From assembly GCA_041302525.1 (NCBI GenBank), contig JBFYQX010000092.1, positions 1-61,807 on the forward strand: a DNA stretch of 61,807 nucleotides. Reading direction: 5' to 3'. This document shows positions 6,403-33,250 of the stretch, one piece after another. Source of the DNA: Candidatus Bipolaricaulota bacterium (GTDB lineage Bacteria > Bipolaricaulota > Bipolaricaulia > UBA7950 > UBA9294). The position numbers and the translations under genes are program-made. A model generated the notes under the pieces. That model was not told the origin of the DNA. It searched no databases and saw only the letters and a list, made by a program, of their open reading frames with translations. Every line of letters begins with the position of its first letter. Within the stretch, counting starts at the first letter, position 1.

Positions 6403-7039
6403 GACGTGGTTCCTTTCTCTCCCTGGGGCGCGAGGTTTCGCCGGCGGCGCTCTTGCGGGCGCGTCGGGGCGCTGGCACGGGTGCAGCGTCGATGAAGCGC
6501 TCGGTCACGGCCATCAGGATGCGCGCCCCCGATCGGCCGGCCCGATACTCGTGTCGCTCGCGCGACGCGATCCGGTAGCTGTCCCCGACGGCGAGCGCGT
6601 GCTCTTCGTCGCCCACCCACAGCGTCAGCGCGCCGGCGAGGATGTAGCCCAGCTCCTCGCCCTCGTGCGGCGTCGCTTCCTGGCGGGCACCGGCCGGGAA
6701 CTCGGCGATCAACAGCTCCTCGATCGGCGCGGCGGGCAGCTGCGGCGAGAGGTAGCGGTAGGCGACCGCGGAGTCGCCGATCTGGATGCGGAGCTGCTCG
6801 GCCGCCGGCGTCACCCGGTCCGGCCCCCGAAGCAACGGGCCGCTGCTCGTGAACAGGCGATCCATCGGGAGATCGAGCGCGTGACAGATTGCGGCGAGCG
6901 AGACGATGGAGAGCGTCGATTGGTCGCGCTCGACCTGCGACAGGAACCCCGTCGACAGCCCCGAGCGTACGGAGAGCGTCTCCAGCGTCCAGCCTCGTTC
7001 TTGACGCGCCTTGCGGAGTTGTGCCCCAATGTCCGGCAT
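6389..7039 (-). CDS. XRE-family HTH plus cupin transcriptional regulator
   Basis: IGAQLRKARQERGWTLETLS..SGLSTGFLSQVER HTH; HEGEELGYILAG and GDSY cupin motifs. Confidence 0.9.
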   Translation of the reverse strand: MPDIGAQLRKARQERGWTLETLSVRSGLSTGFLSQVERDQSTLSIVSLAAICHALDLPMDRLFTSSGPLLRGPDRVTPAAEQLRIQIGDSAVAYRYLSPQLPAAPIEELLIAEFPAGARQEATPHEGEELGYILAGALTLWVGDEEHALAVGDSYRIASRERHEYRAGRSGARILMAVTERFIDAAPVPAPRRARKSAAGETSRPRERKEPRRATT

Positions 7040-7129: not shown

Positions 7130-8197
7130 ATGCAGAAGCAGCGTCTGGATTTCCTGAAGAAGCTCATGAACACGGTGTGCCCCACCGGGTACGAGGAAGA
7201 GGCGGCACGCGTCTGGCGGGACGAGGCGGCACGCTTCGCGGACCGCACGTGGATCGACGTGAACGGGAATGCCATCGCGGCGATCAACGAGAAGGCCCCG
7301 TTCCGGGTGATGATCGCCGGCCACCTCGACGAGATCGGGCTCATGGTCACCTACGTGGACGATCGCGGGTACCTGTCGTTCACGGGGCTCGGGGGCTGGG
7401 ACATGGCCATCCTGCCCGGCCAGCGCGTCCGCATTCGGACCGCCAAGGGCGACGTCCTCGGCGTGATCGGCCGCAAGCCGATCCACCTGATGCGCGAGGA
7501 GGACCGGAAAAACCTGCCCAAGTTCGAGGATCTTTGGATCGACATCGGCGCGAAGGACAAGGCCGCCGCGCTGAAGATCGTCGCCCTCGGCGACCCGGCC
7601 GTCCTCGACTACGGGGTCGAGGAGCTGCGCGACGGGATCCTCGTCGGGCGCGGCATTGACGACCGCATCGGCTCGTTCGTTGCCCTCGAGGCGCTCCGCC
7701 TGCTCAAGCAGGCCAAGACGCCGCTCGGCGTGTTCGCTGTCGCGTCGACGCAGGAGGAGATCGGCTCGCGCGGCGCCCAGACCAGCGGCTACGGGATCGA
7801 TCCGCAGGTCGGATTCGCCGTCGACGTGGGCTTCTGCACCGATTACCCCGGCATGGACGACGCGAAGAAGAAGTGGGGCGAGGTCACGATGCGCGGCGGT
7901 CCCATCATCACCCGCGGGCCGAACGCCAACCCGCAGCTCTATAAGCGCGTGCTCGACGCCGCGGCGAAGAGCAAGATGCCGGTCCAGATCGAGCCGTACC
8001 CGCGCGGCACCGGGACCGACGGGAACGTCATGCAGTTGCTGCGCGGCGGCGTGGCGACCGCGATCATCTCGATCCCGAATCGTTACATGCACTCGCCCTG
8101 CGAACTGGTGCATGTCGATGACGTCGAGAACGCGGCCAAGCTCATCGCGCTCACGGTCTCCGGGATGACCGCCAAGACGCGGTTCGCCCCCGAGTAG
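7130..8197 (+). CDS. M42 family metallo-aminopeptidase (TET/FrvX-like)
   Basis: GHLDEIG, GGWD, DDRIG, QEEIG, VDV and RYMHSP metal-ligand motifs; SD GGAGG. Confidence 0.92.
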   Translation: MQKQRLDFLKKLMNTVCPTGYEEEAARVWRDEAARFADRTWIDVNGNAIAAINEKAPFRVMIAGHLDEIGLMVTYVDDRGYLSFTGLGGWDMAILPGQRVRIRTAKGDVLGVIGRKPIHLMREEDRKNLPKFEDLWIDIGAKDKAAALKIVALGDPAVLDYGVEELRDGILVGRGIDDRIGSFVALEALRLLKQAKTPLGVFAVASTQEEIGSRGAQTSGYGIDPQVGFAVDVGFCTDYPGMDDAKKKWGEVTMRGGPIITRGPNANPQLYKRVLDAAAKSKMPVQIEPYPRGTGTDGNVMQLLRGGVATAIISIPNRYMHSPCELVHVDDVENAAKLIALTVSGMTAKTRFAPE

Positions 8198-12539: not shown

Positions 12540-14282
12540 CTAGCGTCGGCCAAACCGGCGGTCGAGTTCCTCGCGTTCGAGCGAGAAGACAATCGGTCGA
12601 CCGTGCGGGCAGCTGTACGGATCGTCCTCCTGCATCAGTTGGTCGACGAGCGCCTGCGCGGCAAGCAGTGGGATTCGGTCGCCGGCCTTGATCGCCGCCG
12701 CGCAAGACAACTCGGTAAGAATGCCGTCGAAGAGCGCGTCCTCGACGTCTCGCTCCTCGCGCAGCAACTCGACCAGGGCGTCGAGGACGTCCTGGAATCC
12801 CCGCGGCGTCTGATCGTCGGCCAGAACCTGGGGGTACTCGCGTAGGAGGAAGGTGCCGCCCCCGAACTCCTCGAGAACCACGCCGGCACGGCTGAGCCGC
12901 TCGAGTCCTGCGGTCACGACCGCCGCGGCCTCGAACGGCAGCTCGATGCGCGCCGGCAGCAGGAACAGCTGGCGAACGATGCCGCCCTGGGCGAACTCGC
13001 GACGCAGCCGCTCGTAGAGAACGCGCTCGTGGGCGATGTGCTGATCGACGATCTCGAGGCCCGCGGCCGTCTCGACCAGCAGGTAGGTGTCGTGCAGTTG
13101 GGCGAGGACGCGCCGCTCGCCGGGAAGGCTCACTCTTGCCGGACCGAGCGGCGTGCCCGCCGCCCCGGCCGGCGCGGGGAGATCAAGCGCCAACGGCCGC
13201 GCGGTCGCGTTCTCCCGCAGGATGCGGATCTCGCCCCCGCGGGGCGCGGCGGGGACGGCGTCCGGAATCGGCGCGACCTCGAACCGCCCGGCCATGCTTG
13301 GCGAGGTCAGGGCCTGGTGCAGCGCGGCGGCGACCGCGTCTTGAACCTCGCGGGAGTTGGCGAAGCGGACCTCCTCCTTGCGGGGGTGGATGTTGACGTC
13401 CACCTGGTCGGGCGGGAGATCCACGCACAGGACGGCGATGGGGAAACTGCCGGGGCGGAGGATGCCGCTGTAGGCGCTGGCCAAGATGTAGCCCAGCCCA
13501 CGATCGCTCACCGCGCGGCGGTTCACGACGAACAGCTGGTCGCGACGGTTGCCGCGCTTGAGGTCGCGGTGGCTGATGCAGCCAGAGACGCGCAGCGCGC
13601 CCCGCCGCCCGTCGAGCGGAAGCATGCCCCGCGCGACGTCGACGCCGTAGACCTGGCCGACCCGTTCGAGCAACGTCCCGACGCGCGGCGCGGCGAACAC
13701 CTCGCGGCCGTCGTGCGCCAACCTCAGGCTCACTTCCGGGACCATGAGCGACAGCCGCTGCACCCAGCGGTTGATGTGCGCCGTCTCCGTGCGCGCCGAC
13801 CCGAGGAACTTGGCGCGCGCCGGCAGGTTGAAGAACAGGTCCCGCACTTCAACTGTCGTGCCCGGCCCGCGTGCATCGGGCGCGGGCTCGCCCGTCTCGC
13901 CGGGACCGAGCGACATGGCGAACGCGTCGGTCGCCCCGGCAGCGCGGGAAGCGATCCGCACGTGGGACACGGCGGCGACGCTGGCCAGCGCCTCGCCGCG
14001 GAACCCGAGTGTGCGCAGCTCGTCGAGATCGTCCACGCTGCGGATCTTGCTCGTCGCGTGCCGTTGCCCGCACAGCCGGAGGTCCGACGCCGCGATGCCA
14101 CAGCCGTCGTCGCGCACCACGATCGATTCGACGCCGCCCCGCGCGATCTCGACCTCGATCGTGCGCGCCCCGGCATCCAGCGCGTTCTCGACGAGCTCCT
14201 TGACCACGGAAACCGGCCGGTCAATGACCTCCCCGGCCGCGATCTTCCGGCTCTCCGACTCATCTAGACGCTGGATGGGCAT
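12540..14282 (-). CDS. mutL: DNA mismatch repair endonuclease MutL
   Basis: IAAGEVI.RP.SVVKELVENALDAG, GFRGEALAS, DVNIHPRK.EV, DQHIAHER...YE, CPHGRP. Confidence 0.95.
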   Translation of the reverse strand: MPIQRLDESESRKIAAGEVIDRPVSVVKELVENALDAGARTIEVEIARGGVESIVVRDDGCGIAASDLRLCGQRHATSKIRSVDDLDELRTLGFRGEALASVAAVSHVRIASRAAGATDAFAMSLGPGETGEPAPDARGPGTTVEVRDLFFNLPARAKFLGSARTETAHINRWVQRLSLMVPEVSLRLAHDGREVFAAPRVGTLLERVGQVYGVDVARGMLPLDGRRGALRVSGCISHRDLKRGNRRDQLFVVNRRAVSDRGLGYILASAYSGILRPGSFPIAVLCVDLPPDQVDVNIHPRKEEVRFANSREVQDAVAAALHQALTSPSMAGRFEVAPIPDAVPAAPRGGEIRILRENATARPLALDLPAPAGAAGTPLGPARVSLPGERRVLAQLHDTYLLVETAAGLEIVDQHIAHERVLYERLRREFAQGGIVRQLFLLPARIELPFEAAAVVTAGLERLSRAGVVLEEFGGGTFLLREYPQVLADDQTPRGFQDVLDALVELLREERDVEDALFDGILTELSCAAAIKAGDRIPLLAAQALVDQLMQEDDPYSCPHGRPIVFSLEREELDRRFGRR

Positions 14283-14358: not shown

Positions 14359-14808
14359 ATGCACACCATCTCCAGCCTACGCAAGGCCCTCGGGCTGTCG
14401 ACGGCCAATCAGGTCAGGAACCGCCTCGACGCGGTTCGCGACCTCCTCGAGCCGCACCTGCGCCGCGGCCCGAACAACCAGATCCTCGTGGCGGACGAGG
14501 GCCTCGCTCTCCTGCGCCGACTGCAGGAGTTGGTTGATTCCGGGCTAAGGATGAGCGAGGCGAGCGATGTCTTGCGAGCAACAGCTGTGCACAGTAGCGG
14601 TACGCGCGTAGCGGTTTCGTCCAGTTCCGCCTCAAGCGGGATGCAACGTGACGACAGCGTCCGAGATCTCACGGCGGCATTACGCGGCGAGATCGCCTTT
14701 CTGCGCTCGCGCCTCGTCCAGCTTGAGTCTCGTCCGGTTTCGTCTGCAACAGGATCAGACGCCGCTCCCTGGTGGGCGTCGCTGCGGGAGGACCTCGATG
14801 TCGCTTAA
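14359..14808 (+). CDS. MerR-like HTH / coiled-coil protein (RacA-like architecture)
   Basis: HTH-like N-terminus with RGPNNQILV, heptad region LRGEIAFLRSRLVQLE, terminal PWWASL; overlaps the next gene. Confidence 0.6.
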   Translation: MHTISSLRKALGLSTANQVRNRLDAVRDLLEPHLRRGPNNQILVADEGLALLRRLQELVDSGLRMSEASDVLRATAVHSSGTRVAVSSSSASSGMQRDDSVRDLTAALRGEIAFLRSRLVQLESRPVSSATGSDAAPWWASLREDLDVA

Positions 14809-15571
14809 TCTTCCGGTGCGCGGGAACCAGCCGCTTGGCCAAGTCCTCGACCGCGTCAACGCCTCGGTCACCCTGCAGACCTACTGGGAGGCGTCGAACA
14901 CGACGGCCATCGGGCGGCTGCGCATCAACGACCACGGCCCGGTCCACATTAAGATCATGGCCAACATCTCGCTCAAGCTGCTTCGCCTTCTCGCCGACGC
15001 GGGGATCACGCCCAACGTCGTCGCCGACTATGAGCTCGCGCAAGAGGACGCCGAGGTCGTCGTCGTCCTCGCCGCTTGCCTACATGATGTCGGCCATGCC
15101 ATCCACCGCCGTGACCACGAGCAGCTGTCCCTCATCCTGGCCGCGCCCCTGATCGACGAGTTTCTCGCCGGTCTGTACGACGAGCGCGCGCGCGCGCTGC
15201 TGAAGTCGGAGATCCTCCACGCCGTCCTCACCCACCAGCGCGACATCCCGCCCTTGACCCTCGAGGCGGGCGTGGTCAAGGTTGCGGACGCGCTCGACAT
15301 GGAGGCGGGGCGGGCGCGGATCCCGTTCTCGACCGGCGGGCCGACGATCCACTCGGTGTCGGCCATGGCCATCCGCAAGGTTCGCCTCTCCGCGGGGGAG
15401 AAGAAGCCGATCCGCATCGCGATCGAGATGACCAACTCGGCCGGCATCTATCAGCTCGACAACCTGTTGCGCGAGAAGCTGAAGAACTCGACGCTCGCCC
15501 CGTACGTCGAGGTGCTGGCCGAGATCACCGGAGACGAAGAGCCGATCGTCCAGCACTACGCGATCGAATAG
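14798..15571 (+). CDS. HD-domain metal-dependent phosphohydrolase (COG3294-like)
   Basis: NDHGPVH, LHDVGH.IHR..H, ADALDM..GRAR; SD GGAGG before ATG 14798. Confidence 0.88.
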   Translation: MSLNLPVRGNQPLGQVLDRVNASVTLQTYWEASNTTAIGRLRINDHGPVHIKIMANISLKLLRLLADAGITPNVVADYELAQEDAEVVVVLAACLHDVGHAIHRRDHEQLSLILAAPLIDEFLAGLYDERARALLKSEILHAVLTHQRDIPPLTLEAGVVKVADALDMEAGRARIPFSTGGPTIHSVSAMAIRKVRLSAGEKKPIRIAIEMTNSAGIYQLDNLLREKLKNSTLAPYVEVLAEITGDEEPIVQHYAIE

Positions 15572-15700
15572 GAGGCCCCTCAGGTCGCCCCGTTGGCTTC
15601 AACCGGGCTTGGGGGGGGGTGAGGCCGAGGCGCACGGGTCGCCGACGCCTTCCGTCGGGCCTCGAGGCAGCCGTCGTGCGTTCCTGTCTGCGCGCACGGC

Positions 15701-15736
15701 GGTCTCGCAACAAAAGTACCCTTTTGTTGCGACACC
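15701..15736. repeat. AT-rich inverted repeat, candidate recombination (dif-like) or operator site
   Basis: TCGCAACAAAA-GTACCC-TTTTGTTGCGA (15705-15732, 11-6-11), extendable to 16 bp with one mismatch; about 60 nt upstream of a tyrosine recombinase. Confidence 0.7.
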
Positions 15737-15795
15737 GATCACCTCGCCCGCGCCCGGCGCCCGGTACCTTGACCGCCGACGTGAGGGAGGCGCCC

Positions 15796-16413
15796 ATGCC
15801 GCTTGAGGTGACCTACGAGGACTTCCTGACCCCGGAGCAAGTGCGCCGGCTGAAGGACCACTGCCGGGCGCGCGCCGAGACGGCCGTAGGGGACGGCCGA
15901 ACGAACCCCGTCCGCGATTGGGCCATCTTGCACGTCGCGCTCGACACCGGCCTGCGCGTGTCAGAGATCTGCGCTCTCGAGCTCCGCGACGTCATCCTCG
16001 ACGGCGGGCATCCGTCCCTCATCGTGCGCGACGGCAAGGGCGGCAAGAAGCGCGGCGTGAAGCTGGGCTCGGCGCTGCGCGAGCACCTGACCGCGTTCGT
16101 CGCTTGGAAGGCCGAGCGGAGTGAGGCCGTCGCTGCCGCCGCCCCCCTGTTCGTGTCGTCGCGCGGCGGTCCGCTGACGCGCACGGCCGTCTACCGCGTC
16201 TTCCGCCAGCACGCGGACGCGGTGGGGATCCCGGCTCGGTTCTCGATCCACTCGTGTCGCCACACCTACGCGTCCATGCTCTACCGTGCGTCCAACTTCA
16301 ACCTCCGCCTCGTGCAGAAGCAACTCGGCCATCGGTCGATTCAGACGACCCAGATCTACGCCGACGTGCTCGACGAGGACGCCGTCCTCGCTGTCGAGAA
16401 CCTGCCGCAGTAG
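15796..16413 (+). CDS. Tyrosine recombinase, catalytic domain only (205 aa)
   Basis: TGLRVSE (R), GKGGKKR (K), HSCRH, LGH, TTQIY (Y); SD GGGAGG. Confidence 0.92.
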   Translation: MPLEVTYEDFLTPEQVRRLKDHCRARAETAVGDGRTNPVRDWAILHVALDTGLRVSEICALELRDVILDGGHPSLIVRDGKGGKKRGVKLGSALREHLTAFVAWKAERSEAVAAAAPLFVSSRGGPLTRTAVYRVFRQHADAVGIPARFSIHSCRHTYASMLYRASNFNLRLVQKQLGHRSIQTTQIYADVLDEDAVLAVENLPQ

Positions 16414-16434: not shown

Positions 16435-16463
16435 TTGACACCTCCGGTGACGGGAGGCATAAT
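16435..16463 (+). promoter_or_regulatory. Strong sigma70 promoter of the MoxR operon with a palindromic spacer
   Basis: TTGACA-17-CATAAT; the spacer is CCTCC-GGTGACG-GGAGG. Confidence 0.65.
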
Positions 16464-32830: not shown

Positions 32831-32879
32831 CTCCCAGCCGCAGGGCAAGCAGCAAAGCCGGATGCAGGCCTCGAGAGAG

Positions 32880-32904
32880 GAGCCGCCGGCATAGCCGGCG
32901 GCTC
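32880..32904 (-). terminator. GC hairpin downstream of tRNA copy 2
   Basis: GAGCCGCCGGC-ATA-GCCGGCGGCTC, perfect 11-bp stem, homologous to 33210-33236. Confidence 0.6.
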
Positions 32905-32912
32905 CGATGTCC

Positions 32913-33183: not shown

Positions 33184-33209
33184 CGCATCGCAGGTTGGCC
33201 AAGAGAGAC

Positions 33210-33236
33210 GGGCCGCCGGTCGATGACCGGCGGCCC
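33210..33236 (-). terminator. GC hairpin downstream of tRNA-Val
   Basis: GGGCCGCCGGTC-GAT-GACCGGCGGCCC, perfect 12-bp stem. Confidence 0.65.
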
Positions 33237-33250
33237 GTGGCTACGCGCTG

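Follow-up and report, generated by a model that had tools for sequence, protein, structure and literature searches.

A catalytic-domain-only tyrosine recombinase and its upstream dif-like palindrome: a candidate chromosome dimer-resolution module in Bipolaricaulia

Results

Organization of the locus

The stretch of DNA analysed here (the window) comprises the whole of contig C27 (61.8 kb), one of the 118 contigs of a metagenome-assembled genome of 1.82 Mb (G000) from the lineage Candidatus Bipolaricaulota, alternatively named Acetothermia. It carries a gene for a tyrosine recombinase of 205 amino acids (aa; positions 15796 to 16413, plus strand) and, in the intergenic region 64 bp 5' of the start codon, a palindrome that resembles dif sites. 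The gene, recognized by stop-free translation, Pfam and NCBIfam matches, alignment and predicted fold, encodes a catalytic domain only. Its ribosome-binding site GGGAGG (15785 to 15790, plus strand) was read from the sequence, and GGAGG-like motifs precede the ATG in orthologues. The surroundings have a conserved order, namely a lipid kinase gene, mutL on the opposite strand, a gene for a 149-aa protein, a gene for an HD-domain protein, the palindrome, the recombinase gene and a gene for a 561-aa protein. These neighbours are of housekeeping type and no mobile-element cargo is found among them, in agreement with the initial annotation of the window, which had been made from its letters without database searches.

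The palindrome reads TCGCAACAAAAG-TACC-CTTTTGTTGCGA (15705 to 15732, assigned to neither strand). Two perfect 11-bp arms around a 6-bp spacer had been described initially; this holds, and one more complementary pair extends the arms to 12 bp around a 4-bp centre. With one mismatch allowed, the sequence forms a longer imperfect palindrome with 17-nt arms (15700 to 15737). The central four nucleotides, TACC (15717 to 15720, plus strand), are asymmetric, as is evident from the alignment of relatives.

A short recombinase without N-terminal domain

PF00589 (Phage_integrase) is the sole Pfam domain of the 205-aa protein (E 6e-34), residues 10-193 being aligned with profile positions 2-170. Because the match begins at profile position 2 and the start codon is conserved (M1 is kept in 25 orthologues, the set in which residue conservation was assessed), the protein is devoid of an N-terminal domain; the suggestion that a SAM-like N domain is missing is thus borne out. 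The residues R54, K81, H152, R155, H179 and Y188 are invariant in these orthologues, so that the R-K-H-R-H-Y set first recognized in the sequence is indeed intact. The C-terminal LPQ is invariant as well, and column identity averages 76%. Catalytic residues and fold together place the protein in the tyrosine recombinase superfamily (PF00589).

In family as well as structure searches the protein matches XerD, XerC, XerA, XerH and XerS best, integron integrases also being near. The predicted fold resembles XerA, XerH, XerD, IntI, Cre and lambda Int; model confidence is low for the segment that bears H179 and Y188. Matches to Xer families are the best ones, yet they align with the C-terminal (catalytic) half only. 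NCBIfam scores lie below every curated cut-off: 122.8 bits for XerD (cut-off 329.6), 122.1 for XerC (335), 119.9 for XerA (220) and 98 for XerS (267). Because of these scores and the missing core-binding domain, the protein falls outside XerS, XerA and the other Xer families by the criteria of those families.

Orthologues (205 aa, 57-84% identity) were found, one copy each, in 35 of 40 relatives searched. They occur in the entire order to which the window belongs (families f1 and f2), in family f6 and in two of three f7 genomes, and the remaining families of the class have full-length or longer recombinases in their place. The recombinase gene belongs, in single copy, to the core genome of Bipolaricaulia and is no mobile-element remnant. 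Ten Bipolaricaulia genomes (G000, G007, G009, G012, G014, G015, G025, G032, G035 and G038) were searched with Pfam profiles; G032 and G035 are closed and belong to one genus, G032 being larger by 0.4 Mb. No further PF00589 match above the family cut-off is present in seven of the ten, both closed genomes included. The initial annotation had asked for separate xerC and xerD genes, and in G032 and G035 the recombinase is the only PF00589 match.

Among 1.8 billion library proteins, the closest homologues that are not orthologues mostly have a length of 195-260 aa as well; catalytic-domain-only recombinases are therefore a wide family. No palindrome was found upstream of two distant short recombinases inspected (P0122 and P0124). 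Two other recombinase-related sequences were observed in the genomes. An isolated fragment in G007 (C9:2044-2262, L365) corresponds to the C-terminal 49 residues of the recombinase at 80% identity, has no site near it and is a relic of duplication or rearrangement. The genome of the window itself has a second short tyrosine recombinase gene on contig C11 (3-482, L003), truncated by the contig start.

Sequence and conservation of the palindrome

With 43% G+C against ~69% for the window, the palindrome is strikingly A+T-rich for its genome, as first noted. None of 100 shuffles of the window reproduced it. Perfect palindromes with arms of at least 12 bp number three in the window, compared to 0.1 expected (~30-fold excess), and the one next to the recombinase gene is the only A+T-rich one among them. 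The other two (32879-32905 and 33208-33238) are G+C-rich hairpins located 300 bp apart, with arms of 12 and 14 bp and 3-nt loops.

Uniqueness of the site, another point raised initially, was confirmed, since neither a second full site (up to 3 mismatches) nor a further half-site (up to 1 mismatch) was detected in the 1.82-Mb genome. An invertase switch of FimB/FimE type was considered and rejected because the genome has no second repeat.

The layout of the site is of dif type. Sites of this type span about 28-31 bp, have two inverted arms for recombinase binding around a centre of 6-11 bp, do not code for protein and are low in G+C; the palindrome is intergenic, A+T-rich and arranged as 11-6-11. 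Likeness to the TTATGTT of Escherichia coli dif extends to 6 of 7 inner positions and to 6 of 11 positions of the whole arm.

Both arms are invariant across 68 distinct orthologous sites, the set used for site conservation, and in many relatives they comprise 14 nt (TGTCGCAACAAAAG / CTTTTGTTGCGACA). Read in gene direction, the centre is T in 51, R in all 68, C in 56 and C in 52 of these sites; the same bias is seen among the listed metagenome matches described below. A crossover region that lends direction to the site should have such a variable but polar centre, although shared ancestry contributes to the pattern too. We propose G-TRCC-C (15716-15721), with TRCC at its centre, as the putative 6-bp crossover region. 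In family f6 the site occurs as a variant, CTTGACAAAAGG-NN-CCTTTTGTCAAG, with four matched changes that affect both arms.

On the side of the gene, the palindrome is flanked by GACACCGATC (15731-15740, plus strand), which comparison with other genera reveals to be a degenerate copy of GACA-NN-TGTC. In these genera the motif is nearly invariant. Of 120 sequences compared, 113 or more have TGTC at +6..+9; in the window's genus TGTC is replaced by GATC, CATC or CGTC.

Two genomes, G013 and G020, contain extra degenerate copies of the palindrome with 2-3 mismatches, some of them in tandem, in ordinary intergenic regions (L160-L164; G013:C47:9741, G013:C1:86073, G020:C112:10, G020:C14:935 and G020:C133:2397). 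Two of the G020 copies have identical left arm and centre. The degenerate copies may belong to a small family of repeats or be hybrid sites that have decayed. They are flanked by ordinary genes, and the idea that they mark prophage borders was rejected on these grounds.

Linkage of site and gene

The palindrome is found upstream of the orthologue in all 30 loci fetched, and 27 of 29 genomes from the order have one copy of it. A scan of ~185,000 species genomes, in which exact arms were required, gave 70 matches, 68 of them with the recombinase gene 58-124 bp downstream. The exceptions among species genomes are a locus with a tandem repeat in between, a locus that is cut and an unrelated gammaproteobacterial hairpin, one of each. 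The metagenome scan also required exact arms, so that hybrid sites escape it; it gave at least 120 site matches. Among the 80 listed, 69 are linked to the recombinase at a median distance of 63 bp, and those that are not correspond to contig ends, two unrelated palindromes and mobile-element copies. Conservation of the site beside orthologues, a condition on which the initial annotation had made its reading dependent, is thus observed in species genomes and metagenomes alike. Among the ~185,000 species genomes the site is almost exclusive to the Bipolaricaulia lineage, its spacing to the gene is nearly always 55-129 bp, and it remains next to the recombinase even where the upstream gene order breaks.

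One locus (L168, 4200-4500) has a leader expanded by a tandem repeat with a unit of approximately CCGTCCGAGGCGAAGCGAGGAGGGACTCT. Each unit contains a ribosome-binding-like GGAGGG, and an assembly gap lies inside. The 374-bp distance between site and gene at this locus consists of the tandem repeat plus the N gap and was rejected as an insertion.

Search for FtsK and for the core-binding domain

Neither the FtsK/SpoIIIE ATPase (PF01580) nor the FtsK gamma domain (PF09397) was found in the ten genomes, two of them closed, with controls positive in eight bacteria. The Bipolaricaulia lineage may therefore be without the otherwise widespread FtsK translocase, and any resolution system operating in these genomes would need to be FtsK-independent. 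Because RecA and RuvB are encoded in the genome of the window, chromosome dimers should arise. The core-binding domain PF02899 was not found in seven of the ten genomes (both closed ones and that of the window included), other SAM-like Pfam families not having been searched. The lack of FtsK was not foreseen by the initial annotation, nor were the conserved MerR-like partner gene and the site copies on phage and mobile elements described below.

Position relative to the replication terminus

In G035, of which 75% of the sequence was read for skew analysis and the remainder interpolated, the cumulative GC skew reaches its minimum at ~180 kb, a position that coincides with dnaA (178.7 kb). The site (895 kb) is located between the GC-skew maximum at ~880 kb and the AT-skew minimum at ~910 kb. 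In G032 the site lies at 47% of the circle from dnaA, 75 kb before a local skew maximum, and a sharp AT-skew break occurs ~12 kb past it. For XerL/dif sites of Legionella, distances to the inflection point of between 89 bp and 79 kb were found (PMC9765430), a range that includes the distances in G035 and G032.

The cumulative skew of the window has its maximum at 8.3 kb and the skew is negative from ~8-12 kb on, the site being at 15.7 kb; the left arm is short. Two long contigs of the window's genus (886 and 681 kb) were read for 10 kb on each side; on the 886-kb contig (JBFOMW010000006.1) the site is near 380.6 kb. G021 is a pseudo-scaffold of contigs joined by N runs, thus no third closed genome, and was left out of the skew analysis. 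Gene strand bias is too weak in G032, G035 and the window for terminus placement. The initial annotation had asked whether the site is near the GC-skew terminus. It appears to be so in G035 (within ~15 kb) and roughly in G032 (~75 kb), both of one genus; other, fragmented relatives gave a mixed picture.

Mobile elements that carry the site

Exact arms also occur in two IMG/VR records. The first, G041, is a 38.5-kb tailed phage with terminal repeats and with terminase and portal genes, 100% complete according to CheckV. Its site (L165, 19665-19690) lies between terminase-side genes and the portal gene, and a stretch of ~900 bp past the site is free of open reading frames of at least 80 aa. No match to tyrosine (PF00589) or serine (PF00239) recombinases was detected in G041. 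The phage encodes a 142-aa protein (7555-7983) that is a full-length homologue of the 149-aa host protein, WW motif included (hhalign probability 96.7%, E 4e-10); ~12 kb separates its gene from the site. Elements that exploit host Xer systems typically carry a site but no recombinase, and G041 is such a recombinase-less element with a copy of the host site.

The second record, G042 (L157), spans 17 kb. It contains the site (6519-6544), an extra right-arm half-site 165 bp off (6699-6712) and a gene for a 222-aa short recombinase (7496-8164) with 38% identity to the 205-aa host protein. The truncated recombinase at the start of C11 is 65% identical to that of G042, which suggests that a related element, presumably with its site unassembled, is present in the genome of the window. 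Mobile-element copies of the site (G042 L157 and L282) share the flank GTTGCGAGA and are accompanied, at a distance of 165-300 bp, by an additional right-arm half-site in direct orientation. A ~20-bp stretch directly past the site, GCAGAYAGGAACRGGGTTCT, is common to G041 and G042.

These elements bear on the possibility that the recombinase is a domesticated integrase and the palindrome its attachment site, serving as a phage landing pad or in some other programmed rearrangement, while dimers are handled otherwise. This would account for site copies on a phage and other elements and for paralogous short recombinases on mobile elements, including the one at the C11 start. The nearest non-orthologous homologues form a wide short-recombinase family and, in the one case with annotated neighbours, adjoin an IS605-type OrfB. 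Also, classical Xer is lacking in some bacteria, for example cyanobacteria (PMC8138268). We nevertheless regard a domesticated integrase as rather improbable. The gene is a universal single-copy core gene of at least four families, it is under strong purifying selection (mean column identity 76%) and stands in a conserved housekeeping neighbourhood, and it is the only tyrosine recombinase gene in the closed genomes. Moreover, the site appears to be near the terminus in the closed genomes, and no second chromosomal site is available for inversion or excision.

The site in the promoter region of the recombinase gene

TACCTT (15765-15770, plus strand) is a -10-like hexamer of TAnnnT type for the recombinase gene, located at a fixed distance from the site. 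Promoter elements were counted over 120 distinct intergenic sequences, and in 108 of them TAnnnT is found at +34..+39 past the 26-nt core. The site is upstream of the hexamer, at a distance of 33 bp. No conserved -35 element was found in the 120 sequences; the recombinase promoter therefore looks weak or factor-dependent. Since the positions of both flank and hexamer are fixed, the site is built into the promoter region of the recombinase gene. The downstream gene for the 561-aa protein has a canonical promoter (TTGACA-17-CATAAT, 16435-16463, plus strand), which indicates that the recombinase gene is a transcription unit of its own.

Because the distance between site and hexamer is fixed, site occupancy probably also tunes the recombinase promoter. 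The initial annotation had left the choice between a minimal dimer-resolution system and an autoregulatory site. The -10-like hexamer at its fixed distance and the other computational results support these roles, and probably both are true.

The position of the palindrome also invites a reading at the RNA level, as terminator or stability element of the operon of the 149-aa and HD genes or as leader structure of the recombinase mRNA. A perfect 12-bp stem could indeed form 134 nt beyond the stop codon of the HD gene, which lies on the same strand. However, the stem lacks a T-run and is rich in A+T, and both a terminator scan and an Rfam search were empty, which speaks against the terminator named as an alternative in the initial annotation. 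Invariance concerns the sequence itself and goes beyond pairing. Because the -10-like hexamer lies 3' of the palindrome, the latter would not be part of the recombinase mRNA. In addition, genomes without the HD gene keep the palindrome, and phages carry it in unrelated surroundings. We thus consider an RNA hairpin highly implausible.

Neighbouring genes and the MerR-like protein

The 149-aa protein (14359-14808, plus strand) consists of a MerR-type winged helix, a coiled coil and a C-terminal WW motif, as judged from 113 loci and the predicted fold. Its gene is present upstream of the site in all these 113 loci, also where the HD gene and the gene order at larger scale have been lost. Its protein family comprises 464 members, all of them "hypothetical proteins" of Bipolaricaulota. 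The gene for the 257-aa HD-domain protein (14798-15571, plus strand), usually located between the 149-aa gene and the site, was found in 88 of 97 loci and is absent in g9-type genomes. The two genes overlap by 11 nt and diverge from mutL on the minus strand (12540-14282). Neither Pfam nor PHROGs gave a match for the 149-aa, 561-aa and 221-aa neighbours. The 149-aa protein was considered as a core-binding domain acting in trans; this was rejected, its predicted fold being MerR-like and not SAM-like.

The recognition helix of the 149-aa protein, NQVRNR, is the same in family f6 despite the different outer arms of the f6 site. The homologue from phage G041 has a different helix, HAARKR, and arms identical to those of the host. 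Because changes in helix and arms are uncoupled, the 149-aa protein does not appear to read the arms. An accessory or activating role would therefore fit better than that of a repressor paired with its operator.

This is relevant to the proposal that the palindrome is mainly a transcriptional operator, bound by the recombinase or by a dimer of the MerR-like protein, the real recombination substrate being elsewhere or in mobile-element DNA. Such an operator would agree with the rigid spacing between site and hexamer, with the lack of a conserved -35 element and with the second small palindrome, GACA-NN-TGTC, at approximately the position of a class II activator. The MerR-like gene is a constant neighbour, dimers of MerR type are able to bind palindromes this long, and the phage has both the site and a MerR-like homologue. 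Proteins with tyrosine-recombinase fold can repress, as exemplified by MrpR/YopR of SPbeta (PMC10516654). On the contrary, the full catalytic hexad is invariant, although it is needless for pure DNA binding, and there is no other conserved candidate site, the palindrome being single-copy in the genome. The MerR-like helix is constant in f6 with its changed outer arms and differs in the phage with the same arms. On G042 the site is accompanied by a short recombinase gene, and a MerR-like gene is missing. The phage has its site between terminase and portal genes, with the MerR-like gene 12 kb away. A pure operator is hence an unlikely explanation in our opinion.

Downstream of the recombinase gene (window 16518 onward; L367 10735-20537) we observed a conserved run of genes, three of which have no family match (561, ~225 and ~440 aa). 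These are followed by genes for a MoxR-type AAA ATPase, a DUF58 protein and BatA/VWA proteins, an arrangement that resembles a Bat-like cluster.

Discussion

A proposed dimer-resolution module

We favour, with moderate confidence, the interpretation that the palindrome and the 205-aa recombinase constitute a minimal, FtsK-independent module for dimer resolution, similar to Xer/dif, which operates with a single recombinase, probably controls its own promoter and is exploited by phages. In such a module, each 12-14-bp arm would be bound by one protomer, and the two sites of a dimeric chromosome would pair to form a tetramer. Tyr188 would cleave at the borders of the 6-bp crossover region G-TRCC-C, and two rounds of strand exchange via a Holliday junction would produce two monomers. 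Polarity of the site would be set by its asymmetric centre. The MerR-like winged-helix protein might be an accessory or activating factor, and phages and other mobile elements with the same site would integrate through the host system.

Several points weigh against this interpretation. Binding and recombination at the site, cleavage positions, dimer resolution, autoregulation and the role of the MerR-like protein are inferred. The core-binding domain, present in every characterised Xer protein, is missing, and it is puzzling how a 12-14-bp arm would be clamped and read without it. A dimeric MerR-like neighbour could in principle be the binder of the palindrome. Evidence on terminus position comes from one genus, in which skews are of low strength; the skew maximum of G032 is 75 kb from the site, and the terminus would be further off according to AT skew and gene orientation. 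Local GC skew in 12 fragmented relatives is mixed and confounded by conserved gene order, and owing to the same conserved order many linked gene-site loci are not independent. No contig with two sites, and no integrated prophage flanked by them, was found among the 70 exact-arm genome matches and the 80 listed metagenome matches. Finally, Bipolaricaulia are a putative host of phage G041.

More tentatively, the module might be a two-piece machine of a lineage without FtsK/SpoIIIE. The catalytic-only recombinase would be complemented by the 149-aa protein in place of the core-binding domain and/or the FtsK gamma activator, and phages would hijack the system by means of the 28-bp site and a version of the small protein of their own, in a XafT-like manner. 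We think of this arrangement as conceivable rather than likely.

Nearly all bacteria with circular chromosomes are held to resolve chromosome dimers by Xer/dif. To our knowledge, a core-binding domain and a catalytic one are present in all characterised Xer proteins, and FtsK controls those of bacteria. The best candidate for dimer resolution in Bipolaricaulia has half the usual protein, no FtsK and a site in its own promoter region. If our interpretation is true, this would be the smallest known Xer-type recombinase. Recognition and timing would then be possible without a core-binding clamp or FtsK, perhaps by means of a separate winged-helix partner; two-piece control would be a kind of Xer regulation undescribed for any bacterium. 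The pair of compact recombinase and 28-bp site would be a potential genetic tool, the attachment site of Bipolaricaulota phages would be marked, and the basic cell biology of this widespread uncultured phylum would be extended. New in this work are the absence of FtsK, skew placement in a closed genome, polarity of the centre, fixed promoter spacing and the MerR-like homologue of the phage.

Comparison with known systems

Recombination by FimB and FimE is aided by accessory DNA-binding proteins. Like the protein described here, FimB and FimE have ~200 aa and are essentially a catalytic domain alone; they demonstrate that proteins of this kind are able to recombine DNA. In contrast to the one site per genome in Bipolaricaulia, they act on two inverted repeats around an invertible promoter segment, and the match to their family is weaker than that to Xer (51.9 bits, cut-off 222).

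Phage G041 is similar to Xer-exploiting elements and to TLC-phi with its activation factor XafT (PMC6744903) in that it copies the host site, lacks a recombinase and encodes a homologue of the partner protein, much like an element that supplies an activator of its own to the recombinase of the host. Unlike TLC-phi, it is known here without an integrated state, and any likeness of the partner protein to XafT would be one of role.

We found no published description of the Bipolaricaulia recombinase-site pair in the literature, and a published classification of tyrosine recombinases comprises only types with a core-binding domain (PMC8138268). Among lone recombinases, XerL of Legionellales and LME-1 (PMC9765430) shares with the Bipolaricaulia system long uninterrupted arms of its site, low G+C content and, judging from the two closed genomes, probably a location within tens of kb of the inflection point. 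The mobile element LME-1 has a dif mimic (PMC9765430), just as the elements described above copy the site. On the other hand, XerL is long (its catalytic tyrosine is residue 389), its gene is apart from the site and Legionella has an FtsK homologue; Bipolaricaulia differ in all these respects.

Closer in organization is XerS/difSL of streptococci and lactococci (PMC1914069, PMC2965235), where a lone recombinase also has its site directly 5' of its own gene and in a single chromosomal copy. The site difSL lies in the terminus region, as the Bipolaricaulia site appears to do in the two closed genomes. Being directly upstream of xerS, it has been suggested to be part of the xerS promoter (PMC1914069). 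Unlike the Bipolaricaulia recombinase, however, XerS has 356 aa with an N-terminal core-binding domain and is FtsK-dependent. Its site has imperfect arms and an 11-bp centre, as opposed to the perfect arms and 4-6-bp centre of the site described here, which occurs in a lineage with no detected FtsK.

Archaeal XerA/dif (structures 5hxy and 4a8e) provides the best match in sequence and fold and is again a system with a lone recombinase, a 28-bp site of 11-6-11 layout and no FtsK. XerA possesses a core-binding domain (~280 aa in total), whereas the Bipolaricaulia protein does without one and its host is bacterial. Independence of FtsK has a precedent in XerA (PMC5357621), and in some archaeal species xerA and dif form one module, as the recombinase gene and its palindrome would in Bipolaricaulia.

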